DNA from: Nitrospirota bacterium
GTDB lineage: Bacteria; Nitrospirota; Nitrospiria; 2-01-FULL-66-17
Reading direction: 5' to 3'
DNA: 64,000 bases
Assembly (NCBI GenBank): GCA_049325335.1
Contig: JBMOMC010000002.1
Span: 32,001-96,000, forward strand
Below, one piece after another: positions 46,200 through 62,356 of this stretch. How positions within the stretch are numbered: the stretch's first letter is position 1; every line of letters begins with the position of its first letter. Below the pieces are notes generated by a model that was not told the origin of the DNA, ran no database searches, and saw only the letters and a program-made list of their open reading frames with translations. The translations under genes were made by a program, and so were the position numbers.

Positions 46200-46221
46200 T
46201 CTCACGGCGATCGCCGTGAGA
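46200..46221. terminator. Perfect 22-bp palindrome just after the large operon
   Basis: TCTCACGGCGATCGCCGTGAGA, 13 bp downstream of the last stop codon. Confidence 0.55.
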
Positions 46222-46234: not shown

Positions 46235-47197
46235 TTACACCGGGAAGAACACGAACGGGTAGGTGACGATGATGACGCCGTCATACAGGTGGGGGAACTT
46301 CCACATCTTGATCCGGCTGGCGAGGGCTTGTTCCAGCGGGGCGTGATCCATGGTGGTGGAAATGATGCGCGTTTCAATGACCTTGCCGGTGGCGTCGATG
46401 GAAAACTCCACGGAAATGGTGCCCTTGAGCGTGGGGTTGGCACGGAGTTCTTTGTTGTAGAGGTAGATCAGGCCGTTCTTGTACTGCTCCACCACGCGCG
46501 CGATGGCGTCGTAATCAATCGACGCGCCTGTCCCCGACCCACCGCCTCTCAGCCGGACGCCCACGCCGTCGCCGAGACGGTGCCCGCCGCTGCCCGCTCC
46601 GCCGGCGCCGGTCTCGGTTGGAATCCGGGCCAAGGCGACTTGTTCGCCGTGGGCGAGTCTGGTGCGGTCGCCGCTGCCCAGGGATTTGGATTTGGCCACG
46701 GTCTTGTCCACCAATGCGGTATCGTGCGACAGGGGTTTAGTAGCAATGGCGCGGGTGCTCTTGGCGGTCGGGGCCGTGATCAGATCCGACGATGACAAGG
46801 CCTGGGTCAGGCGATCGCTCTCGATGATGTCGCTGAGTCCGCCTTTTTCTTCTTCTTCGATCAACGAGGCGAGCAGGCCGCTCTGCCGCACGATCTCCCG
46901 TGTTTGCTGGGCCGAGGGTTTTGGCGGGGCCGCCGGCTTCTTGTCGGCTTTGGGTTTGTCGGCGTCCTTCTTTTCCGGGGCGACGTCCGCCACGTTAGGT
47001 TTCTCCGGTGTGGCTACGATGGGCGGAGGTTCCAAGATCAGCTTCGCCACACGTTCGGGCAGATCCTGAATGTCGGGGTGCTCGGGAACAGGCATGCGGA
47101 TGATGGTCACGAGCGCCGCGGCCAACAAATAGAAGCCCAGCGAGACACGCAGGGTCTTCTTAAACAGCTCATCGTCTGAATGCGGTACGATGATCAT
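46235..47197 (-). CDS. TonB/TolA-like energy transducer with AgmX/PglI (GltG-like) C-terminal domain
   Basis: Single N-terminal TM, Pro/Lys linker, SGLL motif, Gly-rich linker, LYNKELRANPTLKGTISVEFSI...WKFP...VTYPFVF. Confidence 0.85.
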   Translation of the reverse strand: MIIVPHSDDELFKKTLRVSLGFYLLAAALVTIIRMPVPEHPDIQDLPERVAKLILEPPPIVATPEKPNVADVAPEKKDADKPKADKKPAAPPKPSAQQTREIVRQSGLLASLIEEEEKGGLSDIIESDRLTQALSSSDLITAPTAKSTRAIATKPLSHDTALVDKTVAKSKSLGSGDRTRLAHGEQVALARIPTETGAGGAGSGGHRLGDGVGVRLRGGGSGTGASIDYDAIARVVEQYKNGLIYLYNKELRANPTLKGTISVEFSIDATGKVIETRIISTTMDHAPLEQALASRIKMWKFPHLYDGVIIVTYPFVFFPV

Positions 47198-47209
47198 CTA
47201 CGGTCTCCG

Positions 47210-47707
47210 TTAACCGATCTGCTCTTTTTGCACCACCGCGAGCGCGATGTGCGGAAACTCCGCCTGCGCGCAGGTGGCCATGAGTTTTTTGAGCAACTGA
47301 AACGGAATCTTGCGATCCCCCATAATCGTGATGTTCCCGGTGAACGTGACCGACGCGGTCTTTTGCGCCATGGCGCGGGTGCGGTCTCCCAACCGAGTCA
47401 GCTCCTGCGTGAGCGGTCCCAGGATAGTGTCCGGTTGCGCGATGGCTTCCGCCACGCCCATGACGCGTTTCCCGTCCACGAAGATCTCCCTGTCCGTCAC
47501 CAACAAGGTGACGGTCGGACGCGGGGCCTTTTCCGCGGTGGAGGCTGGCAGCTTGAGGCCTTCGGAGTCTGGTAACGCTTCTTCACCCGCAAGATGAACC
47601 AGGAGAAACAATAGCAGGATGGTGAAAATGTCCATCAAGCTGATGAGGCTCAACGACACGACGGCGTCGCGGCCTCGTCGATTATGGAGCCGGTCGCGAA
47701 ACTTCAT
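47210..47707 (-). CDS. ExbD/TolR family protein (AglS-like)
   Basis: LISLMDIFTILLLFLL (conserved TM Asp), LKLPAS, IMGDRKIPF. Confidence 0.9.
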   Translation of the reverse strand: MKFRDRLHNRRGRDAVVSLSLISLMDIFTILLLFLLVHLAGEEALPDSEGLKLPASTAEKAPRPTVTLLVTDREIFVDGKRVMGVAEAIAQPDTILGPLTQELTRLGDRTRAMAQKTASVTFTGNITIMGDRKIPFQLLKKLMATCAQAEFPHIALAVVQKEQIG

Positions 47708-48192
47708 ACGCGTTTAACCTCGCCGATTGAAATGTCCGGAAACAACTCCTGGGACGGGCCGGCCTTCCGGCACACGTCCATGACTTCGACCAAGGACTCG
47801 TACGCCACGTCGGGCTCGCTCAATAGGATGACCGACTTTTCCTGCGGGTAGGAGGTTTTTACCCGTTGCAACAGCGCAGTCAGCCCAGCGAGGTCGTACG
47901 CGCCGTTTTGCAGCGCGAGCCGATTCGGAGCCAACCCGCTGCCTTGTACGCTGATTCCGTCCCGGTGCAAGGCCACGATCAAGCTGAACGGTTCTTGCGC
48001 GGGCGGCGCGGCGGCGTGCGCGCTCGATGCCGTGGGCAGGTTGAGCTCCAACACCGCGAGCCGGGAAAACACCACGCCCGTCAGCAAGAACGGGATCAAC
48101 ACCACCATGAGATTCATGAATGGCGTGATGTTCAGCGAGTTGTCGCCTTGCCCGAACCGGCGAGCCCGACGTAGCCGCACGCTATTTCGCAT
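47704..48192 (-). CDS. ExbD/TolR family protein (AglQ-like)
   Basis: LNITPFMNLMVVLIPFLL (Asn in place of Asp), YESLVEVMD, LFPDISIG. Confidence 0.9.
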   Translation of the reverse strand: MRNSVRLRRARRFGQGDNSLNITPFMNLMVVLIPFLLTGVVFSRLAVLELNLPTASSAHAAAPPAQEPFSLIVALHRDGISVQGSGLAPNRLALQNGAYDLAGLTALLQRVKTSYPQEKSVILLSEPDVAYESLVEVMDVCRKAGPSQELFPDISIGEVKRV

Positions 48193-48904
48193 GCACGGTC
48201 CCTTTCATCCCCACCGCTCGGCGCGGCTGGAGCATTTCCGAGCCGTTGGAGTACGCGTCCGCCGCGTCACTCTTCGCCATCTGGCCGGCCAGATTCACCA
48301 GCCTCAGCGCGTACCCTTCCACGGTGTCGATAACCCGGTTGGTGCGGCTCTGGAGAAATCCGTGCACCAACATGAGCGGCACCGCCACGATCAATCCGAA
48401 CGCGGTGGTGTTCATGGCTACTGAAATCCCCTTAGCCAACAACGTGGCCTTCTGGGCGGGGTCGGCCATCGACACCGCGGTAAAGGCCTGGATCAACCCT
48501 ACGATGGTGCCGAGGAGTCCGAGCAGGGTGGCGACGTTGGCCAGATTCGGCAGGTAGTTGAGCCGTGCCTCCAGCCGCGGAATGACCTGCATCATGGCCT
48601 CGTCCACGCCGCCTTGGGCGTCTTCCCGGGTGAACGAGCCTTTCATGCCGCGAATTCCCCCCGCGAGGACCTGGTGGAGCGGGCGGTTGGACTGCGTGCA
48701 GTGACGCGCTGCTTCGTCCATGCGCCGGCCGTGGATGCTCGGCGCAATTTGCCCCCACAGCCGTTCGCCGTTGGTCCCGGCCCGCGCGATCACCACGATG
48801 CGTTCCACCACGATCGCGGTTGACACAGCCAGCACCAGGAGGATCGGATACATGAAGAATCCTCCGGCCTGGAAAAAGTTGATATATGTTGCCACGCTGG
48901 TCAT
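48182..48904 (-). CDS. MotA/TolQ/ExbB proton channel (AglR-like)
   Basis: GGFFMYPI, ATLLGLLGTIVGLIQAF, LAKGISVAMNTTAFGL. Confidence 0.93.
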   Translation of the reverse strand: MTSVATYINFFQAGGFFMYPILLVLAVSTAIVVERIVVIARAGTNGERLWGQIAPSIHGRRMDEAARHCTQSNRPLHQVLAGGIRGMKGSFTREDAQGGVDEAMMQVIPRLEARLNYLPNLANVATLLGLLGTIVGLIQAFTAVSMADPAQKATLLAKGISVAMNTTAFGLIVAVPLMLVHGFLQSRTNRVIDTVEGYALRLVNLAGQMAKSDAADAYSNGSEMLQPRRAVGMKGTVHAK

Positions 48905-49236
48905 TGGTTCCCTCCTCCTGTTCCGGATATCGGTGTGCGCAAAAGCTGGCGTTGAAAACGCGCTCGATCTACGGGTTCGAGTAGTTCTTGTTCAAAACTC
49001 CGGCGAAGCGGCATGTCGTTGTCCACCGCCGACAGCGTATTCTTCCACGGGACCACGTACACCACGTGCGGTTGCTCCAAGGTGCCCTGGATCTCGGTGC
49101 CTTCCATCAGAAAGCGTTCGACGTTCGCGTCCGTCCCGACGGACTCGGCTCCGGCGGGCGCGGTGTCCGCCGCTGAGGCCAGTCCGACAGCGAGCAGCAC
49201 GGTTGCGGGTATGAGCGACCCGATCAACCGCCTCAT
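48901..49236 (-). CDS. Small secreted protein, GltF/CglF-like
   Basis: Signal peptide; IQGTLEQPHVVYVVPW...RRSF motif; position between TPR and TolQ genes. Confidence 0.7.
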   Translation of the reverse strand: MRRLIGSLIPATVLLAVGLASAADTAPAGAESVGTDANVERFLMEGTEIQGTLEQPHVVYVVPWKNTLSAVDNDMPLRRSFEQELLEPVDRARFQRQLLRTPISGTGGGNQ

Positions 49237-49874
49237 GGCGTCTCCTTGACGCGGTCCACCCGCTTCTGGAGCGCGGCGATCCAGATCGCCACCTCCTCTT
49301 GCCCCTCTCCGCCCGCAGCCAGATAGGTCTGATAGTGCTCGATCGCCTTGTCGGGTTCATTGAGATACAGATCGTAGAGCACTGCCAGGTTGTAGTCGGC
49401 GTCTCGGAAATCCGGCGCGGCATTGAGCGCGCGGCGGTATGCGTCTTCGGCCTGGCGAAACTTGCCTTGCTCGCGCAATGCGAGCCCCATGTTGTAGTAG
49501 GCTTCGGGGTATTGGGGTTGGATCTTGATCGCCTGTTGGTACGCGGCTACGGCTTCCGGCAGCAGTCCCATGCGCTTGTAGACCACGCCGAGATTGTTGT
49601 GGAACACGCTCACGTGCGGGTAGCTGGTCCGCAAGTTTTCGAACGCGGCCCTGGCTTCCTTGAGCTTTCCGTTCTCAATCAGGCTCGTACCTTTTTGGAA
49701 GCGTAGGAGAACCTGGTCAAGTTTTTGTGCCTCAGCGGCACGCGATTCGTCGCTTCGCGCGGTGGTCTGAGTCGGGATCGGCGCGGGCGGCGGCAACATC
49801 GCGCGGGTGCAAGCCGTCAGCGCCGCGACAAGGACGAGCAACAGACGCATGAATTTCTGGGGACGGGTACTCAT
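49233..49874 (-). CDS. TPR lipoprotein (GltE/AglT-like)
   Basis: Lipobox LTAC; TPRs HNNLGVVY, YYNMGLAL, YNLAVLYDLYL. Confidence 0.85.
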   Translation of the reverse strand: MSTRPQKFMRLLLVLVAALTACTRAMLPPPAPIPTQTTARSDESRAAEAQKLDQVLLRFQKGTSLIENGKLKEARAAFENLRTSYPHVSVFHNNLGVVYKRMGLLPEAVAAYQQAIKIQPQYPEAYYNMGLALREQGKFRQAEDAYRRALNAAPDFRDADYNLAVLYDLYLNEPDKAIEHYQTYLAAGGEGQEEVAIWIAALQKRVDRVKETP

Positions 49875-52696
49875 CGTTCAGCCGCCAAGAGCCTGTCAAT
49901 GATTGACGAGAGCGGTTTAGCCGTCAACGTCTCGACATCGATATTCGAAGTGAGTCGCTCGGTTCGCTCTGGACGTTTGTAGAGCGCGGGCCGCAATTCC
50001 GCCAGCCGGTCGTAACTCTTCTTGACCCACTCGTTGTAGGCTCCCGGTTGGCTCGACGCCCGCTGCACGTTGCTGGCATACGCCTGAATCGCCTTTTCTT
50101 CAAACGGGAACGCTTTCTCTTCCAGTTGGAACTTGTACTCGTCCACCTGTTCCGGGGTGAGTTTCTTCGGGAGTTCGGCTTCGAGCAGCGCGGTCTTGAA
50201 GTGTTCGAACACCTCGCCCAGGCGGTACGCGGACGTGGCAACCACCTCCTGGTATCGCGTCTCCGCGGCCCGTGTGTAGAGCGTGATCGTCTTGTCCAAC
50301 GCCTGAGTCTTATTTTTGAGGTTCTTTTTGAACGGCTCCCTCAGGGCGATTTTTTTAAGCGACCGGAACGACTCCTCGGCCTGGTGGAACACGGCTTGCG
50401 CCGCGAACTGGGTGCCGGGTGCCTGTTGTTCCACCTCCGTGAACAGCTTGAGGGCCTCCATGGTCTTCCCCTGGCGCTGCCGGATCATGGCCATCTTCCA
50501 CCAACCTTCAGGCGCATCCGGGTGTTTGGGGAACCGCTCGGTGAATTGCGCGAAGACCGCGTAGCTCTTGTCCCATTGGGAGGCCTTTTCGTAATCGACA
50601 CCGGCGGTCCAGAGAATCTGTGGCGCCTGCGCGTGGTGTTGGGGTAACGTGGCCGCGGCTTCGAAAGCCTCGGCGGCTTCGCCCCACTGTTCACCTTGTT
50701 CGTAAATCAAGGCGGTTTGGAGCGCGGCTTTTGCGCCGAGGTCGGACGTGGGGTCGCGCTGGACCAGTTGCTGGTAGGCGGCGATCGCCTCGCGCGGCTG
50801 CTTGAGCGTTTCGTACAGACTCGCCGCCTCGAACAACGCGTCGGCCGCCAAGGGGCTCTCCGGGGCTTCGCGCGAGATGGCGGCAAACGTCTTGGCCGCG
50901 TCGCTGAGCCGATTGGCCTTCTTGTGCTGCTCTCCCTGCTTGTACATGGCCGCGGCCAACAGATCGTTCATCTCGCGCTGCTGGGCCTTGTCCGCTGTCG
51001 GGAGGAGCGACAGGGTCAGCGCGTACGCCGCGCGAGCCTCGTCGAAACGGCCTTGCCGCATATAGGAGTGGGCGATCAACTTCTGCGCGGTGGCGGTGCC
51101 CGTGAAATTGGGATACCGGGACAAGACCTGCCCCAACATCTCGCGCGCCTCGGCATCGCGTTGCTGGTCGAACAGGATCTCGCCGGACTTGAGCAAGACC
51201 GTGGGCGTCCGGGCATCCTTCGGGAACTGATCCGCGAACCGTTTCGTCAACGCGACGAATCGCTCGTGGCCCTTCTTGTCCTGAAGTTTTTCCGCGGCCA
51301 CGATGGCGGAGTACGCGGGTTCTTTGTCCGCCGCGACTCCGGGATAGCTGTAGGCCACGGCTTCGTACGCCGCGGCCGCCTGCGCATACTCCTGCAACGC
51401 CATCAGGGATTCGGCGTACAGCAGATGGACTTCCCGCGTGTCCTTTTCCTCAGGGAACTCCGCGAGGAACTGGCGATACCATCCGACTGCTTCCCGATAC
51501 TGCTCGGCCTGTTTGCTCTCCCGCGCAGCGGCATGCGCGGACACCCCGAGCCGGTACAGACTGTCTTTGACCAAGGGGCGCGAGCGGGCTCGACCGGCCT
51601 CGTCGGTGGCCTTGTACCAGACGCTGGTGCTCAGGTACCCGTTCACGAGTGCGATTCTGGCGTCACGCGCGGCTTCGGGATCCCTCTCCTTCTCGTACGC
51701 CTCGATGACATACGACGCGAAGATGGGCGCCATGTCGTGCATGGGATGCTGTTGTACGAACGTCCGGTAGGTCGCAATCGCCTGCTGCCGGTTCCCCTCA
51801 CCCAGATATTGGTTCCCCATCATGAGGTAGAGATCTTTCTCGTAGAGCGCGATCCCGTGTTGTTTGAAATAGTCGGCCATGGGTTGCGGCCCGCCCAACC
51901 CCCGGAATGAAATAGCCACGTACGTCAGCGCTTCCCACACGAGGGACCCGGAGTCGGCGGCCGTGGCCGGTTGTCCGGCGGTCTTCTTGTCCACGAGGTA
52001 CAAGAACTGATCGACCGCGTGCGGGTATGCGCGGAGATTGAAGTAGGTCCACCCGAGTTTGTACCGGGCCCGGTCTTGAAGGACCGGATCGTCGAGCCCA
52101 ATCGTCTGCTCATAGGCGTCAGCCGCCTGCTCGAATCGACGGCCGTCAAAGTCGGATTCGCCGATACGGAAATATGCTTCCTGGAGGTGGGGACTGGTCG
52201 GGTATTCCGCGACCAACTTACTGAGCAACGGCTGGGCCAGGTCCCGACGCCCGGTCTCCGAGTAGGCACGGGCCAGACCGTACAGCACGTCGTCCTGCGC
52301 ATGAAATGTCGGATCGGTTTCGAGCAACGTCCGGTAGGTCGTGATCGCGTCGTCGTAATTGACCAGCGGCGGGGGGCCTTGTGGGTCCTTCTCATACGCC
52401 TCCATCGCCGAGAGAAATTGCTGGTGCGCGCGTTCAAGATACAGATCCCCGAGCCGTTTGAGTGCCTCGGATCGCAGGACGGGGTCCACGGTTCCGTAAT
52501 CCTTGAGAAAGCCTTCATACCCTGTGATCACGTCGGCTTTGCGAACCACGGGCAACGGCGCGCTCGAAGCCGCGTTTACGGCCTCCGAGTCCACGCGCAA
52601 CACGCCGTGATCCTTCGCGCTTGCGCAGGCCGTCAGCAGGCATGTGAGGCCGGCGAGAGACCACGTGGTCGCGGTGTGAAAAACACGGTGTTTCAT
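49871..52696 (-). CDS. Large TPR lipoprotein (GltD/AgmU-like)
   Basis: Lipobox LTAC; many TPRs; C-terminal P..L..EQ.DEY.FQLEEKAFPFEEKAI...NEWVKKS motif. Confidence 0.85.
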   Translation of the reverse strand: MKHRVFHTATTWSLAGLTCLLTACASAKDHGVLRVDSEAVNAASSAPLPVVRKADVITGYEGFLKDYGTVDPVLRSEALKRLGDLYLERAHQQFLSAMEAYEKDPQGPPPLVNYDDAITTYRTLLETDPTFHAQDDVLYGLARAYSETGRRDLAQPLLSKLVAEYPTSPHLQEAYFRIGESDFDGRRFEQAADAYEQTIGLDDPVLQDRARYKLGWTYFNLRAYPHAVDQFLYLVDKKTAGQPATAADSGSLVWEALTYVAISFRGLGGPQPMADYFKQHGIALYEKDLYLMMGNQYLGEGNRQQAIATYRTFVQQHPMHDMAPIFASYVIEAYEKERDPEAARDARIALVNGYLSTSVWYKATDEAGRARSRPLVKDSLYRLGVSAHAAARESKQAEQYREAVGWYRQFLAEFPEEKDTREVHLLYAESLMALQEYAQAAAAYEAVAYSYPGVAADKEPAYSAIVAAEKLQDKKGHERFVALTKRFADQFPKDARTPTVLLKSGEILFDQQRDAEAREMLGQVLSRYPNFTGTATAQKLIAHSYMRQGRFDEARAAYALTLSLLPTADKAQQREMNDLLAAAMYKQGEQHKKANRLSDAAKTFAAISREAPESPLAADALFEAASLYETLKQPREAIAAYQQLVQRDPTSDLGAKAALQTALIYEQGEQWGEAAEAFEAAATLPQHHAQAPQILWTAGVDYEKASQWDKSYAVFAQFTERFPKHPDAPEGWWKMAMIRQRQGKTMEALKLFTEVEQQAPGTQFAAQAVFHQAEESFRSLKKIALREPFKKNLKNKTQALDKTITLYTRAAETRYQEVVATSAYRLGEVFEHFKTALLEAELPKKLTPEQVDEYKFQLEEKAFPFEEKAIQAYASNVQRASSQPGAYNEWVKKSYDRLAELRPALYKRPERTERLTSNIDVETLTAKPLSSIIDRLLAAER

Positions 52697-54621
52697 TGGC
52701 TCGCCATATCCCACAGACGAATTTGGTTGAGCCGCGCCGCGGCGGCCATGGTTTCGATCCGCCCGTGGCGTTGGTCCACGGCTTTGACCAACAGGGCTTG
52801 CAGCGGCGGGAGGAGTTCGGCCCGCGCCGCGGTTAATCGGCGTTGGTGCGCAACCAAATCGCGTCTGATGTCACGGATGTCGCTGCGGAACGTGCCGAGT
52901 CGGTTTTCAATGCCCGCAATGGATTCCACCAACTTCCGTTGATCGCGATCCGCCTGCTCAAGGTCCTCGTGCAATCGGTTTAACGCACGTTGAAGGTCGT
53001 CGCGTCGTCCCGGGACGTCGGTGGCAATGGTCCATACACGCTCGCCATAGAGCACATCGAGCCAGCGATCGGTCGTTTGCCACTGCGCCCGAAGGTCGTG
53101 GAGCCGGTCACGCACGGCAGGTGTTCCGTCGTCCATCCGTCGGATGGATTCTCCGACCGCACGGCTCTTCCGCCGAGCGTCTTCCAGCTCGTCGAGCGCG
53201 GGGCGCTCAGCGCCCGATGCCCAGTTCCGCGCGGTCTCGTGCCGGACAGCCTGCTCGATCGCGGTTTGCAACACAGCCTCTCGCTGCGTGAGCGGGGCCA
53301 CGGGGCTTTCATCGAGAAAGCCTTGCACAATGGGCACGCGCTCGCGAAAAATCGCTTGTCGATGCTCGAGCATCACGTCGAAGACGGCCGTGTCCTCGAG
53401 TTTTCGGGCCAGGTAGTGCTCAAGGGCCGCGAGTTCGCCGTATTGTTTGACCCAGTATCGGAGTCCGTCGTCTTCCAGGATCGGAGCGAGGGGACTCCGC
53501 ATCACTGCGTGGAAGTCCGTAAACAGCGCGTCCAATTGATCGCGATCTCGGATCAGGGATTTGATCGCAAGAAGGTTCTGCTGTGTCCGCTGGTAGGTGT
53601 CCAGGGCCGTGACATACGATTCGAGCGCCTTGGCGTGTTGTCCCAGGCGGTCGTAGCAATGGCCGATCGTGGTGAGGGCTTCCAGCGCATAAGGATGGTC
53701 GGGGGCCGCGCGTACGAGCGCTAAAAACGCGGCAAGCGACTCGTTGTACCGCTTGCGATACAAATGAGCCCAACCTAAGCCGAACGTCGCGTCGGGGTAG
53801 AACCGGCTGCTCGAAGGCACGGAGGCCAAGGTCGGGACCGCGTTGTCGTACCACCCGGTCTCGGTGAACAACAATCCCAATGTCACTCGGCTCTTCTCGG
53901 CAAGGGCTTGGCGTTCCGCGTCGTCCTCGGGGGTGAACGCGCCCGCGCCTTCGAGCAGGCGGATCGCGGCCGACACGTCGGCCAGTTGCATCCGGGATTT
54001 GGCCGACGCCAGCGCGGCGAACGGGCGGTACGCGCTGGAAGTCGGAACCGTCGCGAACGCGCGCAGCGATTCGTCGAATTGCCCCAGCGCGTAATGGCTC
54101 ATTCCGGCGAAGTAGGCGGCTTGGTCAAGCGATGCGAATGTCGGATCGCGATCAAGTCGCTTGTACGTGGACACCGCAGCCTCGTACAAGGATCGCGAGT
54201 ATTGGAGCCGTTCGATCAGCAGCAACACCTGGTTACGGTCGTTTCCCGGTGGGAATGTGGCAACGAGCTGATCAAAGATGGTTCTGGCGGACCGGTGAAG
54301 GCCCCATGCCAGATAGAGGCTGCCCCGAAGCAGGCGGGTCTCGTTGAGCAGGCTGGGCTCGTTCTGAACCCCCTTTTCCATCAGCTTCAGTCGAGTCGCG
54401 GACGTCAGGTAGTCCTCCAGAAAGAAGTGGTAGTAGGCTTCTTTCTTAAGCGAGGCCACGGTGGCGGGGGATACGGGGGAGACCGGCCATGCCTCGGCCG
54501 TGGTCGCTCCGACCTGGAGGGTGTCGGAAGCCGCAGCAAGGGGCGTGGTGCCATCCCCGGCAAAGGCCGGGAACGCCCACGCGCCGAGACTCAGGACAAG
54601 GATGTTAATGCCACGCTTCAT
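52693..54621 (-). CDS. Secreted TPR/coiled-coil protein (GltC-like)
   Basis: Signal peptide AFA; TPRs (DATFGLGWA); long C-terminal coiled coil. Confidence 0.8.
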   Translation of the reverse strand: MKRGINILVLSLGAWAFPAFAGDGTTPLAAASDTLQVGATTAEAWPVSPVSPATVASLKKEAYYHFFLEDYLTSATRLKLMEKGVQNEPSLLNETRLLRGSLYLAWGLHRSARTIFDQLVATFPPGNDRNQVLLLIERLQYSRSLYEAAVSTYKRLDRDPTFASLDQAAYFAGMSHYALGQFDESLRAFATVPTSSAYRPFAALASAKSRMQLADVSAAIRLLEGAGAFTPEDDAERQALAEKSRVTLGLLFTETGWYDNAVPTLASVPSSSRFYPDATFGLGWAHLYRKRYNESLAAFLALVRAAPDHPYALEALTTIGHCYDRLGQHAKALESYVTALDTYQRTQQNLLAIKSLIRDRDQLDALFTDFHAVMRSPLAPILEDDGLRYWVKQYGELAALEHYLARKLEDTAVFDVMLEHRQAIFRERVPIVQGFLDESPVAPLTQREAVLQTAIEQAVRHETARNWASGAERPALDELEDARRKSRAVGESIRRMDDGTPAVRDRLHDLRAQWQTTDRWLDVLYGERVWTIATDVPGRRDDLQRALNRLHEDLEQADRDQRKLVESIAGIENRLGTFRSDIRDIRRDLVAHQRRLTAARAELLPPLQALLVKAVDQRHGRIETMAAAARLNQIRLWDMASQ

Positions 54622-55153
54622 ACCCGAACTCGGGTTGTTTCTTGGCGTCGTCGTCGCGAATGACCAACTTTAAGAAAGCCGCGCCTTTCTCCTTGGCGAG
54701 GGGGATGTTCTCCGCTCGTTTGTAGTCCTGTCCTTGCGGACCTTTGCCCGTAAACACCGCGGCGATTTGATGGTCGCCTGACTTCACGTTACCCATATAC
54801 AGCCGCTGAATCCCGCCCTTTTTGAGCGCGGTGACTTCGCGCTCGGTATACAGGTGCGTGGTCACCATGGTGTCGTCGAGCACCAATTTCACGGAGTCTA
54901 AGACGAAGTAATTCCCGCCCTCGACGCTCAGGAAAATCACCAACGAGGAGTCCTCCGGATACAACAGATCTTCCTGGAGTCGAAAGAGCCGCGTGTTGAG
55001 ATCGAGCACGTCGTCTTTTAATCGCTGGATCTTCACGTCCAATGCCTCGATGTCGCGTTCAGGATTGGGAGGTTCCTCCGCCCGCGTGGGGAACCCCGTC
55101 GTGAAGACGAACGAAAGACACCAGAATCCGACGAGTGCGTGAAATGGTTTCAT
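54605..55153 (-). CDS. Conserved-looking secreted hypothetical protein (coiled coil + beta-sandwich)
   Basis: ATG 55153 overlaps the apbE stop; signal peptide; LNTRLFRLQEDLLYP, HLYTEREVTALKKGGIQRLYMGN. Confidence 0.8.
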   Translation of the reverse strand: MKPFHALVGFWCLSFVFTTGFPTRAEEPPNPERDIEALDVKIQRLKDDVLDLNTRLFRLQEDLLYPEDSSLVIFLSVEGGNYFVLDSVKLVLDDTMVTTHLYTEREVTALKKGGIQRLYMGNVKSGDHQIAAVFTGKGPQGQDYKRAENIPLAKEKGAAFLKLVIRDDDAKKQPEFGYEAWH

Positions 55154-56196
55154 CAGGGTTCCTTCCCGTGTTCCATAAGTTTTGCCCCGAGGCCGAGTCC
55201 CGCCAGCCCCGAGGACAGGTGCATGTCGCCGTTTCGGTCGATGATGATCGCCTCCACGTCGTCCAGTTGTTCGACCAGCGCCAGGCCTTGTTCCGGGCCC
55301 AGCACGAATACGGTTGTCGACAACGCGTCGCTGGTCATCGCGTCCGTCGCCAAAATGGTGGCGCTGCGAGATTTCTTCGCGGGATATCCGGTGGTCGTGT
55401 CGAGAATATGGTGGTAACGCACGCCGTCTTTGACGAAGAATCGTTCGTAGTCTCCGGACGTGGAAACAGCCTGGTCTTCGAGCGGCAACACCGCGAGAAT
55501 GCCGTCGGCCTTGTCCGGATCCCGAAGCCCGATTCGCCACAAATCGTCGCCGTTTGTGCCCCGGATCAGCGTGTCACCGCCCGCCATGACCATGGCGTTG
55601 TGGACTCCGTGTGCGTTGAGCACGGCCATGGCCCGGTCCATGGCGTACCCTTTGCCGATCCCGCCGAGGCCGATCTCCATCTCACGCGCAGGGAGAAACA
55701 CCGTGGAGTGGTCGTCGTCGACGCGGACCTTCCGATAATCCACAAAGGGGAGCTGGGCCTTCACGGCGGCGGGGTCGGGGATCACGCCCGCGCGAAAGTT
55801 CCAAAGTTTTCCGACCGACGCGAAGGAAATGTCGAACGCGCCGTCGGAGAGTCGGGAGAAAAACAGCGAGCGTTGAATCACCTGCAACAATTCGCGACTC
55901 ACCGCAACCGGCGCCACCCCGGCCTGTTGATTGATCCGGGACAGTTCGGTCTCCGGCAGAAAATTGCTCATGAGCCGTTCCAGACGGGAAACCTCGTCGA
56001 ACGCGGCGTTGACCGCGCGCCGCAGTTGTTCGCGATCGTTACCCACGGCTTTCACGATCACCTGGGTTCCCATCAACGCGCGCTCTTCGGACACGAGTAC
56101 GGGTCGGGAAGGCGGCGTGACGGCCTGAACCGGCGCCACCGCTGCGCCGGCCAGCAGTACGTTAGTAAGTAAAGCCAACGCTCGTGTGTAGGACAT
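55153..56196 (-). CDS. apbE: FAD:protein FMN transferase
   Basis: LMGT, GAFDIS, LGGIGKGYAMD, AGGD, STSGDYERF, RYHHILD, SDALST. Confidence 0.95.
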   Translation of the reverse strand: MSYTRALALLTNVLLAGAAVAPVQAVTPPSRPVLVSEERALMGTQVIVKAVGNDREQLRRAVNAAFDEVSRLERLMSNFLPETELSRINQQAGVAPVAVSRELLQVIQRSLFFSRLSDGAFDISFASVGKLWNFRAGVIPDPAAVKAQLPFVDYRKVRVDDDHSTVFLPAREMEIGLGGIGKGYAMDRAMAVLNAHGVHNAMVMAGGDTLIRGTNGDDLWRIGLRDPDKADGILAVLPLEDQAVSTSGDYERFFVKDGVRYHHILDTTTGYPAKKSRSATILATDAMTSDALSTTVFVLGPEQGLALVEQLDDVEAIIIDRNGDMHLSSGLAGLGLGAKLMEHGKEP

Positions 56197-57298
56197 GGGC
56201 TCTCTGCGAGTACAGTGCGCCGGTGCGCGGGTCCGTAAAGTTGTCGTAGTCGTACATCAACAATGCGTAGCTGAACAGGACCGACATGTTTTCCAGCCCG
56301 TGCCACTTGAACCCTTGGGGTTTGTATTGAAGCGATCCGCCGATCCAGTGGTCGGAGAAGCGTGATAACTCCTTGTCCCGGGCCTTGTAGATCTGGGTGG
56401 CCGGGACCCGGTCCCCGTAAAAACTGGCCTCGCCCTGACGGTAATATCGATAAAACACGCCGCCGAGCCAATCGGCGCGTATGTACCGCTGATATTCCAC
56501 CTTGCCGGTATGGGACCTGACCTCAAAGGTGTCCTGGTAGTACCGATAATCGATCTGGATGGCGCTGCGCCGCCCGATCGACACGTTGTCCGCTGATCCG
56601 GGATCAAACCCATAACTGGTTCGCAGCGCCCACGCGTGCCCGGTCCGTGATTCAGGATACCGTTCAGGAGCAAACGCCTCGCTGTCGAGGATCGCGCTGC
56701 GGTACGGATTGTTGAGAAAACCGGAGTCAGCCGTGTTTTCATAGTTGATCTGCCCCAACCAACGAGGGGTCAATGACTGACTCAGCCCGACCGCATAAAT
56801 CGTTCGGTTGGCGTGTTCCTGCCCGAACGCGGGATCGCCGTTTTTGCCGATCTCATCCCAGGAGCGAGCAAGCCGGAAAGTGAGCGTGGCGTTCTTCTCG
56901 AAGAGGTCGTGCGCCATGGCCACGGCGAACGTGTTTGAGGTGTAGTCGGACTCGTGGCTCCGCGTGTAGTTGATTCCGGTGAGGATGTCCTCGTGCAGGA
57001 CGTCGGCGCCCAATGAATATTCGGTCCGCTGTTCGCGGTACGGGCTGGCCTGGGTCACCACGTCGATCGATGCCGAGCTGACCAGATCCACCCTGGCGCC
57101 GGCCTTGACCGACAGGCGGTTGAGCAATTCCTTCTTGACGATCATGGCCGGTCCTTGAACCGTAATACCGCCGCCGCTGTAGAGGTTGTAGCCGATCGCC
57201 ATATCGTCTTGGGGAGGCTCCACGGCCTCCGCGGTACCGAGCAGCCCGGCCAGCAGCGCCGCACAACCGCCGGCTTGCATGCACGCGCGCGCGTTCAC
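56162..57298 (-). CDS. DUF3570-family outer-membrane beta-barrel protein
   Basis: Signal peptide; DLVSSASIDVVTQAS, HESDY, GFLNNPYR, YRYYQD, RDKELS; ends in aromatic GFTY. Confidence 0.85.
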   Translation of the reverse strand: MNARACMQAGGCAALLAGLLGTAEAVEPPQDDMAIGYNLYSGGGITVQGPAMIVKKELLNRLSVKAGARVDLVSSASIDVVTQASPYREQRTEYSLGADVLHEDILTGINYTRSHESDYTSNTFAVAMAHDLFEKNATLTFRLARSWDEIGKNGDPAFGQEHANRTIYAVGLSQSLTPRWLGQINYENTADSGFLNNPYRSAILDSEAFAPERYPESRTGHAWALRTSYGFDPGSADNVSIGRRSAIQIDYRYYQDTFEVRSHTGKVEYQRYIRADWLGGVFYRYYRQGEASFYGDRVPATQIYKARDKELSRFSDHWIGGSLQYKPQGFKWHGLENMSVLFSYALLMYDYDNFTDPRTGALYSQRAHVLHTSVGFTY

Positions 57299-57522
57299 CG
57301 GCAGCCGCAGCCCCCGCCGCTTCCGCTAAACCCGCCGCGCGATCCCTCCAACACTTCTTCGATGTGCACGTGCCATTCCGCCTGGAGGACGTTGGCGTCG
57401 AACTGCATGATTTCGTCCGCGAGGTACTCTCGCTGCCACGGCTTCACCGCGGAGCAACCCGCGAGCAGGGCGCTGATCATCACGGTCGCAAGCACGAGGG
57501 CCTTCGCGGTCACCGGCGTCAC
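57295..57522 (-). CDS. DUF4266-family small lipoprotein
   Basis: Lipobox LAGC, VKPWQREYLA, C-terminal GGGCGC. Confidence 0.9.
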   Translation of the reverse strand: MTPVTAKALVLATVMISALLAGCSAVKPWQREYLADEIMQFDANVLQAEWHVHIEEVLEGSRGGFSGSGGGCGCR

Positions 57523-58043
57523 TCCTTGAGCAATGCGCGGATTTCGGATTCGTACCGATCCGGGTCGGCGGGCCCAAACCCCCAGTGCACGTGACGAAGG
57601 GTCCCGTCCTTGGCCACGACGAACGTGGTCGGCATGGAGCGAATCTGGTACAGGTCCGATGTGCTCCCGGCCGGATCGAGCAACACGGGGAACGACAGGC
57701 CGAGCGCGGCGCTCAGGTGCGAGGCCTGGGAGGACACCTTGTCGATATTGACGCCGAGGACTTCCAACCCGAGGTTCTGATACCGACGATACAGGACGTT
57801 GAAATACGGGAGTTCCTCTTTACACGGCGTGCACCACGTGGCCCAAAAATTCACGAGCACCACCCGTCCGCGCAGTTCGCTCAACTTCACGTTGCCGCCG
57901 GTCGAGCGCTTCAGCGTGAAGTCGGGCGCCTTCTTTCCCGCGCGGGGGATCTCGCTTGAAACGGGTGGCGCCAACAGCAGCACACTCAACAACGAGGCGG
58001 CCAACAACGAGACAATGCGAATCGTACGCATCGGGTTCCTCAA
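57519..58043 (-). CDS. TlpA/ResA-like thioredoxin (disulfide reductase)
   Basis: APDFTL, VNFWATWCTPCKEE, MPTT. Confidence 0.93.
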   Translation of the reverse strand: MRNPMRTIRIVSLLAASLLSVLLLAPPVSSEIPRAGKKAPDFTLKRSTGGNVKLSELRGRVVLVNFWATWCTPCKEELPYFNVLYRRYQNLGLEVLGVNIDKVSSQASHLSAALGLSFPVLLDPAGSTSDLYQIRSMPTTFVVAKDGTLRHVHWGFGPADPDRYESEIRALLKE

Positions 58044-58690
58044 AAGAATAGGACGAGGGCGAGGGTGCCCTCGATGTTGTACGTGAGTTTGTTCACGCCC
58101 GTGACATCGGTTTCGAACATATGAAACCGCAGGTCGGGCCTCACGTTGAACCAGTCCGTGACAAAGATTTTGAACCCGGTCCCCGCATTGGCGCTGAAGT
58201 GGCTGCGGTCATCCATGGTGACCTGGCCTAAGCCGCCCGCCAGATAGATGGCGGAGTTGATGGTGCGTTTGCGCGTGAGAAAGAGTTGGCCCGGGAAGAG
58301 ATCGTAAGAGACGCCGACGTTCCAGTATGAGAGATCGTCATTGACCAATAACGAGCGGCCCGTCAGCCGGCGAAACGCGGATTGATCGACTTGCGAGATC
58401 GCGTAACTCGCCTCGAACGCGACATCTTCGTTGACGTGATAGGTGAGTCGCAGTCCGAACACGGAGGATGCGCCGAAGCCGTCGGGCGCGTAGATGCCGG
58501 CGTACGGACCCAACTCAAACCGTTCGGTGTCCAGGCGCGCTTCTTTGAGCCGCCGATCGTCGCTCGGCGGCTTGATGACGGGTTCCTCCTCGATCGGCAG
58601 GCCCTGACCGAATGCCGATGATCCGAGATCCACGCCCGCGCCGATTACCAGACCCATCCCCACCGCCATCCATGTCCGCCACGTCATCAT
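58040..58690 (-). CDS. Outer-membrane beta-barrel protein (OmpA-like TM, GltA/B/H-like)
   Basis: Signal peptide; LDTERFELG, alternating strands, C-terminal Phe. Confidence 0.8.
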   Translation of the reverse strand: MMTWRTWMAVGMGLVIGAGVDLGSSAFGQGLPIEEEPVIKPPSDDRRLKEARLDTERFELGPYAGIYAPDGFGASSVFGLRLTYHVNEDVAFEASYAISQVDQSAFRRLTGRSLLVNDDLSYWNVGVSYDLFPGQLFLTRKRTINSAIYLAGGLGQVTMDDRSHFSANAGTGFKIFVTDWFNVRPDLRFHMFETDVTGVNKLTYNIEGTLALVLFF

Positions 58691-58695
58691 GGTCG

Positions 58696-59463
58696 CTAGA
58701 AGTGGAACACCAATCCCGCGCTGTACTCTTGGAACTCCCTGGTGCGTTCGGTGGTCATGAACAGGGTGAAATGTCGGACGTCCACGCGCCCCTCCAGGTT
58801 CCGGAACAGCGGAACGATGACTCCGACGCCGGCATGCATGGTGGGAAACGTGCCGGAGTCGGCGTTGACCAACAGGGTGGTGGGCGTGACGTGCGCGACG
58901 CCCCCGCCCATGGCGGCGTTGACCGCCAGCCACGACGCGCGCCACGGGGTTACCACGATCCCTCCGTGGTAGAGTTGCGTGCTGCCCAAGTCCCCGGCCC
59001 CAAAGCCTCCGGTCGCTTCGAACGCGAGATGGTCGGTGAGCGTGTGCGTGAACCGCACGCAGAGGACCGGATCACCCGCGAACGTGCCGGCGCTCCACCC
59101 CAATGCGGTACGGCCCGCGATGAAGTCGTCATAGATTCGCTCGGTCCAACGCTTGCGGTATCCGGATGCCATCAAGGTTTTTTCGATCTCGCGTCGATGG
59201 GCCCATCCCACGGTTCCGTTGCGGAGACGGATTTCGTACCAGTCCACGCGTTGTTTGAGCAGCCGGATGGTTTCGCCTTTCTCCGCGATATAAAAGACCG
59301 GGTAGCTGCTTCCCGGTCCGGTATGGATTTCCAGAAACGGTTCGACCACCGCGGCTTCCCGGAAGACGGGCTCCTTTCCGAACGCGACGGCGGGGCCGAC
59401 CATCAGCCCCACCGCCATGATGCAGATCCCGAGTCCCCATCCCGCAATCACCCGCGCCCTCAA
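58696..59463 (-). CDS. SH3-domain + outer-membrane beta-barrel protein
   Basis: PFLEIHTGPGSSYPVFY...DWYEI...GW (SH3b), then barrel strands with C-terminal Phe; start TTG 59463 or GTG 59451. Confidence 0.8.
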   Translation of the reverse strand: MRARVIAGWGLGICIMAVGLMVGPAVAFGKEPVFREAAVVEPFLEIHTGPGSSYPVFYIAEKGETIRLLKQRVDWYEIRLRNGTVGWAHRREIEKTLMASGYRKRWTERIYDDFIAGRTALGWSAGTFAGDPVLCVRFTHTLTDHLAFEATGGFGAGDLGSTQLYHGGIVVTPWRASWLAVNAAMGGGVAHVTPTTLLVNADSGTFPTMHAGVGVIVPLFRNLEGRVDVRHFTLFMTTERTREFQEYSAGLVFHF

Positions 59464-59927
59464 AGCGGGTTCTGGATCCAGCCCAAGATCGCGACATAAT
59501 CCGCGTCCGTCGCGCTCATGAAGATGTCTCCCCCCAGGTGCTGAATCCCGCCCGCCGCGAGCGCCAATGGTTTGGTGAGCAGTTTGCTGGTCGTCGGGTT
59601 GGCGAGGTTGGCCATGCCCGCGGCCGAGTCGCTGTTGGCGAGCAACTGATCCGCGGTGCAGGAGTTTCCCGAACAGTCGAACACCCGAAAACTCCCGCCG
59701 GGTCCTCCCGAATTCGGGTTGTCCTTGTCCCGGTAGTGGCACCCGCCCTGCGAGCAACTGCGCGCGTCGAGGATCGATTGAATCGCCGTGGCAAATACCG
59801 ACTGATCCAATTGACCGAGCGCCTCCTGCTCGCCGGGTTCCACGTGCCCGCAACCCGTTCCGAACCACGCCGTCATCATCGCGCACGCAAGTATACCCCT
59901 CGTGTGTGATCGGCCCGCCATCCTCAC
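59460..59927 (-). CDS. Putative monoheme c lipoprotein with atypical CX4CH motif
   Basis: Lipobox-like GTGC; CSQGGCH; homologous to the C-terminal heme domain of the upstream gene. Confidence 0.75.
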   Translation of the reverse strand: MRMAGRSHTRGILACAMMTAWFGTGCGHVEPGEQEALGQLDQSVFATAIQSILDARSCSQGGCHYRDKDNPNSGGPGGSFRVFDCSGNSCTADQLLANSDSAAGMANLANPTTSKLLTKPLALAAGGIQHLGGDIFMSATDADYVAILGWIQNPL

Positions 59928-62356
59928 TGCGCCGCGATGATCCAGTTGAGGATGGTGGCGTAATCCGCGTCCGTGGCGGCCAACGGCGCGGGATTCACCG
60001 GCTGGCCGTTGCGGACCATCGGCACCACGCCGGTGCCTTTGACGAACAGCAGGCTATTGGCCGGGTTGGTCACGTTCACGCGGGCCGCGGTCGCCCCAAA
60101 GTCGCCTTCGGGGTCTCCGGTCAGCACGAAATTGCTGTCGCCGCCCGCCACGTGACAACTCGCGCACCGTCGTTGCAAGATGGGCTGAATCGTGGTTTCG
60201 AACACGGTCTCGTCCAGATTCGCCCGGCCCGGATTGGTGATGACGTCGTAGTTGCTGAACTGCGCGCCCAGATCGATCCACTCCACGATGGTGCGTTTAT
60301 CTTGGGCCGACAACATCCCGGCGTGGTTATTGGCGTCGGTGGCCGGCAAGGCCACGGACGAACGGAGTTCCTCGCCGAAGATGCGCTCGACCAGATGGCT
60401 TTGGCGTGATTCCCCGGGCTGCACGAGGTCGGATCCGTCCGACTCCATTTCGCCGCCGAGCAGGGTGGTGTACGAGATCGGGAACCCGAGGCCCGACACA
60501 TCGCCGCTCAAATCAAGATTCCCGCTCGGGGTGGTTGACGAGTGGCACGACACGCATTCCGCGTCGAAGATCGTCTGCACGTGGTCCGTATAGTCAATGA
60601 CCGCGATGGTGGGCGGCGTGTACACGGACGGCGCGCGGTTGAGCGCGATCGAATCCGCGGCTGCGCGTTGCGGCTGACCGCGACGCGGCGAATGGCAGCC
60701 GTTGCAGGTCCGGCTTTCGCCGGGCCGCACCTGCAGCCAGTTTTCCTTCACCTTAAACGACCGTCCCTCATTATCGACCACGTGCAAGGTCAGGGACGTG
60801 TCGGCCGGGACCGTGACCCGGAACGAGCCGTCCGCTTCGACCGGGGCATATCCCAGGATTTTTTGGCGCTCGAAGTCGGTGAGCCCCATGTCTTCGACCC
60901 CCACCCCGGGCTGGCTCGGCACCGCCTGGACCACTCGAACCTGTCTGACCACTTGCAGCGACGCGTCGCCGACCAGCGCCGCGAAGTCGATGTTGCCGCT
61001 GCCGTCGCGCGGAATGGTCACCCCCAAGACGCTGTTCGACAACGCGCGGTTGGCTTCGGAGTCGTACACGCTTGTTGCCGCGAGCACGCCGGTTGTCCCG
61101 GTCCGGTTCGCAGGTGTACTGGGCTTGGTCGAGGGGATATCGCTGGCGGCCACGGCCATCAACGGCACCGGCTCCACGTAGACCTGCTGGGTTCCGGCGT
61201 TCGGCACTTTGATGGGTTTGAGCGTTCCGTCCGCGTTGTTGAGCATCCAGATGCCATACCGAGCCTCTTCCCCCTCGGTCACCACCCCGGTATCCTCGTC
61301 TTCCATATCTTCGACCACCTCACCGGTCGAGTAGGAGACCAGGTAGCGGTTGGTCCCGTCCGGCACCGGGTACACGTTGTGATACCGGCCGACCTCGGAG
61401 GCTTCCCGGCCGGTGGGAATCACTTGGCTTCCGGTCAACTGGAGCGACGAGGTGTTGGGGTTGTCGGCTTCCGCCGCCACGTCGACCACGCCGATGGCGC
61501 CGCCTTCAAACGTGCCGGTCAATGGCATCATGGTGCCGACCATTTGCCCATCCGGGAGCTCCCGGATGTCCAAGAACGAGTTCACCCCGGAATGGGATCC
61601 GTATTTGACGAACATGTCGGTTCCGTCCGGTCCCATCACGAACATGGGGAACTTGTTTTCTCTGCCCAAGTGTTCCCAACGACTGAACGCAATGTTCCCG
61701 TCGCGCAGGACAATCGGGTTGCGGTCGTGGCTTTGATTAAACGAAATCTGGACCACCTCGCCGCCGTCGCACGACGGTTGGGACGACGACACCGGTTGCG
61801 TGCGATCCAGCATGTGCAGCACGGTGGATCGCCGGCGTTCGTATTCGTCGAGGTGCCCGGGTCGATCCGAGGAGAACACGATTCGGCCGTCGGGCAGGTA
61901 CTGCGGATCCACTTCGTTTGACGAACCGCACGTGAGCTGGACCGGATCGCTCACCCGCGTCCCGTCCGCGTTCACGTCCACTTCGTACAGATGCCACCGG
62001 TCCGCGCTGCTGGTGCGCATCGCGAACACCACCCGAAACTGCTCGTCGGTGGTCTGGGCGAACACCTCCGGATCGCTCACATCGCCGACCCCGTTCGTGA
62101 CATCACCCGTGAGGTTTCGTAGGGTGCCGGATGGGGTGGCGGGCACCAGAGTCATCAGATCGCCGCCTGGTTCGAAGCGAATGGGATCCAATGGGTCACC
62201 AATCGCGTCGAGGCTCCGCGCCGCAAAGACGATCCCAGGGATGTCTTCCTGCGCGACCGGGCTCTCTCCGGTTCCGCAGGACCACGCGGCAACCCCGCCG
62301 ACCAGGGACAACGCGCCCCAACGGATCCACTTCATCGTTTGTGCGTGCAGTCGCAT
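59924..62356 (-). CDS. Hydrazine synthase alpha-like beta-propeller lipoprotein with three c-type heme motifs
   Basis: RBS GAGG; lipobox AWSC; TolB-like repeats (DPQYLPDGRIVFSSDR, DGNIAFSRWEH); HZS-alpha middle-domain pattern LGYAPVEADGSFRVTVPA...WLQVRPGESRTCNGCH; further CVSCH and CASCH. Confidence 0.85.
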   Translation of the reverse strand: MRLHAQTMKWIRWGALSLVGGVAAWSCGTGESPVAQEDIPGIVFAARSLDAIGDPLDPIRFEPGGDLMTLVPATPSGTLRNLTGDVTNGVGDVSDPEVFAQTTDEQFRVVFAMRTSSADRWHLYEVDVNADGTRVSDPVQLTCGSSNEVDPQYLPDGRIVFSSDRPGHLDEYERRRSTVLHMLDRTQPVSSSQPSCDGGEVVQISFNQSHDRNPIVLRDGNIAFSRWEHLGRENKFPMFVMGPDGTDMFVKYGSHSGVNSFLDIRELPDGQMVGTMMPLTGTFEGGAIGVVDVAAEADNPNTSSLQLTGSQVIPTGREASEVGRYHNVYPVPDGTNRYLVSYSTGEVVEDMEDEDTGVVTEGEEARYGIWMLNNADGTLKPIKVPNAGTQQVYVEPVPLMAVAASDIPSTKPSTPANRTGTTGVLAATSVYDSEANRALSNSVLGVTIPRDGSGNIDFAALVGDASLQVVRQVRVVQAVPSQPGVGVEDMGLTDFERQKILGYAPVEADGSFRVTVPADTSLTLHVVDNEGRSFKVKENWLQVRPGESRTCNGCHSPRRGQPQRAAADSIALNRAPSVYTPPTIAVIDYTDHVQTIFDAECVSCHSSTTPSGNLDLSGDVSGLGFPISYTTLLGGEMESDGSDLVQPGESRQSHLVERIFGEELRSSVALPATDANNHAGMLSAQDKRTIVEWIDLGAQFSNYDVITNPGRANLDETVFETTIQPILQRRCASCHVAGGDSNFVLTGDPEGDFGATAARVNVTNPANSLLFVKGTGVVPMVRNGQPVNPAPLAATDADYATILNWIIAAQ

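Follow-up and report, generated by a model that had tools for sequence, protein, structure and literature searches.

The Agl/Glt machinery of Myxococcus has a counterpart in bacteria that do not glide. This Group B core consists of gltC, gltD, gltE, gltG, aglR, aglQ and aglS together with one extra gene, and by itself it does not drive motility (Luciano et al. 2011, PMC3169522); a TolQR-type motor is linked via GltG and tetratricopeptide-repeat (TPR) proteins to outer-membrane proteins (PMC3169522, PMC11761067). In a second described gene set, the DUF3570 cassette (Meheust et al. 2021, PMC8238504), the flavin transferase ApbE flavinylates DUF3570, DUF4266 carries a CXC motif, and DUF4266 and thioredoxin probably relay thiol electrons from DsbD. 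Here and below, these papers and PMC12758564 are cited for excerpts of their text. Both gene sets are known already, each without an assigned function; what is new is their joining in a conserved operon. The operon is found in a 64,000-nt stretch of DNA (the window) from a metagenome-assembled genome (MAG) of the phylum Nitrospirota, class Nitrospiria, where 17 co-directional open reading frames on the minus strand (g1-g17) occupy positions 46235-62356. They form two evolutionary modules, A (g1-g8) and B (g9-g17).

With the chosen start codons, neighbouring genes are separated by 2-12 nt at six junctions and overlap by 1-35 nt at the other ten; g8 and g9 overlap by 1 nt. The tight packing described in the first-pass annotation of this stretch is thereby borne out. 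An N-terminal hydrophobic stretch is present in 17 of the 17 products (by hydropathy and pattern only, with no dedicated signal-peptide predictor), which agrees with the earlier claim that every product is exported or anchored, and a lipobox-like motif before Cys was found by pattern scan in five of them (g1, g2, g6, g11 and g12). Pfam and NCBIfam models were compared with all 17 proteins. For genes that have models, the families assigned at first were recovered; g2, g9 and g13 match no Pfam or NCBIfam family. The genes are as follows.

g1, 59924..62356, minus strand: HzsA-like lipoprotein with TolB-like beta-propeller, HZS_alpha middle domain, three CXXCH and an extra C-terminal domain
g2, 59460..59921, minus strand: small lipoprotein with invariant C-x4-CH and LLTKPL...GG.QH motifs
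g3, 58696..59451, minus strand: SH3_3 domain (8.7e-10) plus small outer-membrane beta-barrel (TIGR04565 weak, 20 bits, cut-off 60)
g4, 58040..58690, minus strand: OMP_myx_plus outer-membrane beta-barrel (TIGR04565, 133.2 bits, cut-off 60)
g5, 57519..58031, minus strand: periplasmic TlpA/ResA-type thiol:disulfide oxidoreductase (AhpC-TSA 1.2e-32, Redoxin 3.1e-27)
g6, 57295..57522, minus strand: DUF4266 lipoprotein (PF14086, 1.2e-16)
g7, 56162..57298, minus strand: divergent DUF3570 outer-membrane barrel (PF12094, 8e-29, 101 bits)
g8, 55153..56196, minus strand: periplasmic ApbE flavin transferase (PF02424, 7e-86, 288 bits)
g9, 54605..55153, minus strand: secreted protein with a long helix and a beta-sandwich, first gene of the core; its model has a predicted local distance difference test (pLDDT) score of 78.5
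g10, 52693..54621, minus strand: TPR protein of 642 amino acids (aa) in the GltC position (TPR families; GltC NF033756, 16.4 bits, cut-off 450)
g11, 49871..52696, minus strand: TPR lipoprotein of 941 aa in the GltD position (TPR_6, 6.1e-42; lipobox LTAC)
g12, 49233..49874, minus strand: TPR lipoprotein of 213 aa in the GltE position (GltE NF033758, 45 bits, cut-off 225; lipobox LTAC)
g13, 48901..49236, minus strand: small secreted protein in the GltF position, with strand motif VVYVVPWK and a C-terminal helix
g14, 48182..48904, minus strand: TolQ/AglR-like proton channel (PF01618, MotA_ExbB, 1.8e-26; three transmembrane-like windows)
g15, 47704..48192, minus strand: TolR/ExbD-like (PF02472, 7.7e-17)
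g16, 47210..47707, minus strand: TolR/ExbD-like (PF02472, 1.3e-12)
g17, 46235..47197, minus strand: GltG-like, TonB-like transducer with N-terminal transmembrane helix, Pro/Lys-rich linker and AgmX/PglI C-terminal domain

Identical gene order was found in 17 further Nitrospiria genomes, with protein identities of 35-90%. Loci were collected by an anchor search with DUF3570 in 40 relatives (12 of 41 genomes matched) and by an alignment search with g9 in 185,579 species genomes (14 loci), and the 17 proteins were then searched by tblastn against those from both searches. All genes are whole in eight of the 14 loci found with g9; in the remaining six, contig ends are the sole cause of truncation. 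Since the 17-gene order recurs in 17 other genomes, the arrangement is not due to chance. All carriers found are uncultured MAGs, which is a limitation. One of them is labelled Candidatus Manganitrophaceae, and a link to metal lithotrophy is therefore worth testing. The PCC clusters of Manganitrophaceae were considered as candidates for this operon and rejected, as they consist of porin plus dodecahaem complexes; the comparative paper on this family makes no mention of ApbE, TolQ, hydrazine or gliding.

The loci that carry both modules (composite loci) are also coherent in phylogenetic trees. In the TolQ tree (29 rows, careful search) the composite cores form one group of 14 rows with support 99/99, and in the GltD-like tree (31 rows, quick search, in which three rows from family f21 or from plain cores were partial proteins) one group of 16 rows with a value of 100 in the Shimodaira-Hasegawa-like approximate likelihood ratio test. 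In both trees this group is separate from cores that stand without module A (plain cores) in the same class and from those of f21, a family of another class. These trees are consistent with one fusion event that was then inherited vertically within Nitrospiria. The flanking genes are matched in close relatives only (MatE in 4 and chlorite dismutase, Cld, in 2 of the 17 composite loci searched), so the block is conserved amid changing neighbours. In G007 and G016, which belong to one genus, the composite lacks TolQ/TolR/TolR between g13 and g17 and retains g17, and each of the two genomes has a plain core with these three genes elsewhere; the coexistence of both forms fits sharing of the motor.

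The first-pass annotation had divided the operon into three modules. This division did not hold, as the cytochromes and the two small barrels travel with the flavin/thiol cassette. Module B is found without module A in the same genome (G000:C43, locus L035:8323-18007), where the order is a 358-aa unknown protein, GltC-like (762 aa), GltD-like (980 aa), GltE-like, g13-like, TolQ, TolR, TolR and GltG-like, and no cytochrome or ApbE gene is present in this core. An NlpC/P60 hydrolase is encoded about 2 kb downstream of it. Plain cores were also found in G001, G007, G014 and G016. A g9 profile matches 40 of 401 Nitrospirota genomes, including 28 of 64 in f21 versus 0 of 75 in f3 and 0 of 40 in f12, both of which are families of the window's own class. 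Ten f21 loci have g9-like, GltC-, GltD- and GltE-like genes followed by g13-like, TolQ, TolR, TolR and GltG-like, with g1-g8 absent. In three of the four f21 loci examined, giant DUF11/SdrD_B/OmpA/OMP-barrel proteins of 1,000-2,800 aa are encoded just upstream of the core (L039:16-8409, L042:10026-18442, L038:19-8402).

These plain cores also define the place of g9, which had been described at first as a secreted hypothetical protein. Its hydrophobic N-terminus and the lack of a Pfam or NCBIfam match agree with this description, and the assignment could be refined: g9 belongs to the motor core, because it is present in plain cores and in some of them is fused to the GltC-like protein. In G014 (L045:2297-4174) a g9-like domain and a GltC-like TPR protein make up one polypeptide of 626 aa, and the plain GltC-like proteins of the window's genus likewise carry a g9-like domain. 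The G014 fusion suggests that g9 and g10 may interact. The g9 family comprises 1,389 representative clusters at E<=1e-3. For its model, Foldseek found no PDB match at E<=0.001, and with VIA-align wide the matches were generic Ig/transthyretin-like sandwiches with a best Z of 8.5, which lies within the background range stated for the tool.

Module A likewise occurs alone. A metagenome scan seeded with one distant g2-like clade yielded 80 loci with about 70% GC, which carry ApbE, a g2-like protein, a small OMP barrel, an HzsA-like protein (671 aa, two CXXCH), TlpA, DUF4266 and DUF3570, and further an NHL/T9SS-tail protein and an SH3+OMP barrel. Counting for each gene only the loci with enough flank, the following were found around the g2-like anchor.

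HzsA-like near the anchor: 19 of 19 stand-alone loci
TlpA near the anchor: 12 of 12 stand-alone loci
DUF3570 near the anchor: 10 of 10 stand-alone loci
SH3/OMP barrels near the anchor: 6 of 6 stand-alone loci
ApbE upstream of the anchor: 22 of 29 stand-alone loci

A homologue of g9-g17 was found in 0 of the 80 loci. The gene content equals that of g1-g8, in an order different from that in the window, and this recurrence in another order is independent evidence that g1-g8 work together. As a lead only, the nearest HzsA-like clusters in the ESM Atlas point to Myxococcota.

The most conspicuous member of module A is g1, which had been annotated as a tri-haem HzsA-like lipoprotein. This is supported by a match to HZS_alpha (PF18582, E 7.7e-20, 71.7 bits, cut-off 26.6), by PD40/TolB-like repeats, by CXXCH motifs at residues 551, 601 and 731, and by the lipobox AWSC. 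The protein is colinear with HzsA of Kuenenia stuttgartiensis (PDB 5C2V chain A; 5c2v_A, E 4.4e-19) throughout the propeller, middle and haem domains, and its first two CXXCH align with those of HzsA. Its structural model, of low confidence (pLDDT 57.1), has 5c2v_A as the top Foldseek match (E 8.2e-26, TM 0.50/0.52), followed by TolB. It has about 19% identity to HzsA and differs from it in being a lipoprotein and in having a third haem-motif domain. This extra C-terminal domain is a paralogue of g2, since in tblastn g2 cross-matches residues 686-806 of g1. In two orthologues (L025 and L031) one CXXCH is replaced by C-x3-CH (CGGACH and CTTACH); thus the spacing of the haem motif is variable within the g1 family.

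The possibility that the operon encodes a hydrazine synthase was considered and rejected. The score of g1 against the HzsA equivalog NF052339 (104.7 bits) is far under the cut-off of 800, and with Pfam and NCBIfam none of the 16 remaining proteins of the operon matched a hydrazine synthase subunit family (an HzsB/C-like partner). HzsA homologues outside anammox bacteria include none with a confirmed function according to PMC12758564. The other HZS_alpha proteins of Nitrospirota (5 genomes, 6 loci) are solitary and stand in a different context, with no other operon gene within about 9 kb; for one of the six, L049, the contig of 3.2 kb gives no context.

The second lipoprotein, g2, had been called mono-haem. 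It is indeed a lipoprotein with a haem-like motif; the motif is not CXXCH but C-x4-CH, in 16 of 16 orthologues, and g2 is probably a haem protein. A family search gave 197 matches, namely 81 close orthologues and then, after a gap, distant small lipoproteins, which in the alignment keep C-x4/5-CH and the LLTKPL...GG.H signature.

The next two genes encode small barrels. The 99 homologues of g4 are all named just 'outer membrane beta-barrel domain-containing protein'; one g4 homologue comes from a Marinimicrobium strain. Complex prediction of g3 and g4 with g2 as the partner, each chain supplied as an alignment, gave ipSAE 0.00 in both runs, for which no controls were run. The thiol and flavin genes g5-g8 correspond to the cassette of Meheust et al. 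(PMC8238504), so that the tie to extracytosolic flavinylation proposed at first stands. As in the 'DsbD systems' described there, ApbE, DUF3570, DUF4266 and a thioredoxin-like protein are all adjacent and their products are extracytosolic. In g5 the WxxWCxPC motif is kept in 18 of 18 orthologues; the C-terminus of g6, GGGCGC[RK], is invariant in 18 of 18, so that the C-terminal CXC of DUF4266 is retained. The window cassette differs from the published clusters in being joined to an HzsA-like cytochrome, barrels and a motor, in the absence of DsbD (typical of those clusters, not universal) nearby, and in g7, which is divergent and has a shorter N-terminus.

The alignment of g7 shows two tandem sites, D-L-V-S-S-A-S and D-V-V-T-Q-A-S, in place of the [S/T]GA[S/T] of canonical DUF3570. 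The frame D-x-[VIL]-[ST]-x-[AG]-S and its final Ser are conserved, the second site reads TQGS in 1 of 18 orthologues, and the DUF3570 of stand-alone module A has D-A-I-T-T-A-S in 11 of 11. The acceptor Ser and ApbE are both retained, and g7 is expected to be the ApbE substrate. The same genome has another ApbE-TlpA-DUF4266-DUF3570 cassette, which stands alone and has the canonical TGAT motif (G000:C2:205150-214522, locus L008). It is followed by an FG-GAP repeat protein, a ResB-like protein and a CcdA-type DsbD_TM gene, the last lying about 5.5 kb from the cassette with the ResB-like gene between.

Module B resembles the Agl/Glt core, as had been claimed. Like the core of Luciano et al. (PMC3169522), it has one TolQ-like and two TolR-like proteins, a TonB-like protein with an AgmX/PglI tail, a TPR protein at each of the C, D and E positions and additional small genes, which together make up a single cluster of unassigned function. 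The AgmX/PglI domain of g17 is above its cut-off (NF033768, 84.2 bits, cut-off 40), and its best full-length NCBIfam match is GltG (NF033760, 1.1e-26, 93.6 bits, cut-off 650, model positions 375-645). The TPR trio fits GltC, GltD and GltE in sizes and order. Homologues of g10 and g12 occur in plain cores, those of g11 in all of them (28-33% identity). In contrast to the published core, GltC, GltE and GltG equivalogs are matched only far under their cut-offs, eight redox or outer-membrane genes precede the core in the same operon, and Nitrospirota are not among the taxa named in the excerpts of that paper. No GltD model matched g11. In the transmembrane helix of g16 an Asp is invariant; at the corresponding acidic site of g15, 11 of 13 composite copies have Asn and the other two (L020, L021) have Asp. 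Unlike the GltG of gliding Myxococcus, g17 has no cytoplasmic FHA region and no cytoplasmic domain, its transmembrane helix beginning near residue 15.

The 'GltF-like' label given earlier to g13 agrees with its position, its size and its layout of strand plus helix, but no family model matched it. According to the alignment, g13 is common to composite and plain cores. At least 6,380 unnamed homologues were found at E<=1e-3 among 8,000 scored, and no Pfam domain is present among the 120 matches listed. The locus-tag lists excerpted from PMC3169522 skip a tag just before the motor genes, which fits the position of g13; the extra gene of the published core may correspond to g13 or to g9.

A known outer-membrane partner of a Glt core is the platform of Myxococcus (PMC11761067), on which CglB, a beta-propeller lipoprotein, is held by GltA/B/K; the barrels are connected through GltC with the periplasmic complex, and GltC in turn with GltG through GltF. 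By analogy, the propeller lipoprotein g1 may be compared with CglB, the small lipoprotein g2, encoded just before two small barrels, with GltK, and the TPR connector beneath, g10, with GltC. In contrast to the GltA/B/H/K platform, the effector here is a cytochrome and not a VWA adhesin, and the window barrels belong to module A, which also occurs without a motor.

That two older, separately conserved gene sets have fused and now work as one envelope system is the reading we favour, with moderate confidence. In such a system ApbE (g8) would attach flavin mononucleotide to the DUF3570 barrel (g7), and the TlpA-type thioredoxin (g5) with the CXC lipoprotein DUF4266 (g6) would supply reducing equivalents to the flavin barrel, the ultimate source of reductant likely being CcdA/DsbD encoded elsewhere in the genome. 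Electrons would then pass to the small haem-motif lipoprotein (g2) and to the three-haem HzsA-like lipoprotein (g1), both of which would sit with the two small barrels at the outer membrane. Beneath them, g14-g16 would act as a TolQ/TolR/TolR proton motor, g17 as a TonB-like arm, g10-g12 as the periplasmic TPR scaffold, and g9 and g13 as two small adaptor proteins of the core. Because elsewhere the core sits behind other outer-membrane or surface proteins, module A would be its output here: proton-motive force would position, gate or expose the haem lipoprotein and the barrels, the model for such handling being the Myxococcus machine with CglB on its GltA/B/K platform. We infer in this way that the motor acts on the redox module and is physically coupled to it, with an electron path from thiol via flavin to haem.

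Several points weigh against this reading. Each module evidently works without the other elsewhere, so that they need not function jointly. Flanking sequence in the stand-alone loci extends to 10 kb at most, and a core located farther off remains compatible with them. The 17 genomes are kin of one class, and their counts are not independent events. The homologues of g3 and g4 have generic names, these barrels travel with module A, and their likeness to GltA/GltB is an analogy. The literal flavinylation motif [S/T]GA[S/T] is replaced in g7 by SSAS and TQAS. DsbD/CcdA is absent from the operon, and DsbD_TM occurs in the genome only at G000:C2:205150 and C1:280738.

The first of these points leads directly to the opposite reading, in which the modules are mere neighbours in one transcript and work independently at the envelope. 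Besides the occurrence of both modules alone, the tolerance of TolQRR loss in G007 and G016 and the presence of a second plain core and a second DUF3570 cassette in the same genome would agree with it. However, the adjacency, the order and the 1-nt overlap of g8 and g9 are maintained in different families with changing flanks, the composite cores group in a separate clade on a long stem, suggesting specialisation, and plain cores too sit directly behind outer-membrane or surface proteins. We consider independent neighbours unlikely.

Quite unlikely is also an energised uptake of the TonB type, in which the motor and g17 would open the small barrels or DUF3570 and the haem/flavin/thiol chain would reduce or oxidise an imported metal or other substrate. 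It would account for the TonB-type C-terminal domain of g17 (TIGR01352, 1.2e-4, beside NF033768 above its cut-off) and for the predicted export or membrane anchoring of all products, and 25 DUF3570 clusters occur with the iron transporter VIT1 (Meheust et al. 2021, PMC8238504). However, neither a TonB-dependent receptor (a 22-strand plug barrel) nor an inner-membrane transporter nor a periplasmic binding protein was found in the operon with Pfam and NCBIfam, and the barrels of the operon are small (216-378 aa).

It is very improbable that the locus serves Tol-Pal-like envelope maintenance, with a dedicated ResA-type thioredoxin solely maturing the two cytochromes. Among the NCBIfam models, g5 matches ResA best (124.6 bits, cut-off 170), the odd C-x4-CH of g2 might require special maturation, g1 has a TolB-like propeller, and g11 is above the YbgF/CpoB cut-off (156.6 versus 90.1 bits), via repeated TPR stretches. 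The Tol-Pal equivalogs themselves, however, score well under their cut-offs in the operon (TolQ 66 versus 221 bits, TolR 30 versus 127, TolB 18 versus 343) and no Pal is found, while g5 always travels with DUF4266, DUF3570 and ApbE as in the published cassette, and the best match of g17 is GltG and not TolA. A gliding or adhesion machine like Agl-Glt of Myxococcus is scarcely credible, as in spite of the common motor and scaffold families and the AgmX/PglI tail of g17, none of the 17 proteins matches GltH, GltI, GltJ, GltK or CglB models at E<=0.01 (GltJ only via the shared tail), g17 lacks the cytoplasmic region, and the core alone does not drive motility according to Luciano et al. (PMC3169522).

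If the fused gene sets do work as one envelope system, a wider proposal may be put forward tentatively. The Agl/Glt core could be a general proton-driven device that handles outer-membrane and surface proteins, and in these Nitrospiria it could drive or gate a surface-facing haem-flavin enzyme (the HzsA-like protein on the flavinylated and small barrels), making up an energised redox machine for extracellular or periplasmic chemistry, e.g. of metals or nitrogen oxides. The general rule suggested is a conserved nine-gene core with a variable outer-membrane 'output', i.e. redox proteins here, giant adhesin-like proteins in f21, and CglB or the spore coat in Myxococcus. Three systems without assigned function meet in this one operon (the Agl/Glt core of bacteria that do not glide, the flavinylated DUF3570 cassette and the HzsA homologues of non-anammox bacteria), and their strict co-inheritance gives each of them a candidate partner and a hypothesis, namely a proton-driven motor acting on an outer-membrane redox module. 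No description of the full combination of redox module and Glt-type core was found in the searched literature, in line with the first-pass annotation, which knew of no characterised example, and no paper was found there on hydrazine synthase together with ApbE. The excerpts of PMC8238504 and 10.1101/2023.06.07.544157, both of which mention DUF3570 and DUF4266, describe no link of these to a motor or to HzsA.

The boundaries of the operon given earlier, a 197-bp upstream gap and a 22-bp downstream palindrome, are confirmed by the coordinates. The features around it are the following.

62357..62553, minus strand: upstream intergenic region of 197 bp, presumed promoter region, with a MatE gene beyond
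46200..46221, no strand: perfect 22-bp palindrome without a T-run, 13 nt past the stop codon of g17
45458-46153: short chlorite dismutase (Cld) gene, downstream of the operon and the palindrome

Consensus scans found no sigma-70-like or sigma-54-like match in the 197-bp gap, and a sigma-54 pattern upstream of g1 was found in none of 13 loci. Rfam gave 0 matches in the gap at E<=1 and 0 over 45000-64000 at gathering scores. Inside the operon, consensus scans found two promoters (3.2 expected) and 21 terminators (15.6 +/- 4.2 expected), i.e. no excess of either. About 50 nt 5' of the g1 start codon (about 62400-62420, minus strand) lies an element AGCAT-N-CGA-N-TTGCA, which matches neither the sigma-54 nor the sigma-70 consensus and is common to the window and three of the four close relatives aligned. 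Of the relatives, only the closest (L019) keeps the Cld gene beside the operon, and a remnant match to this gene is present in L020.

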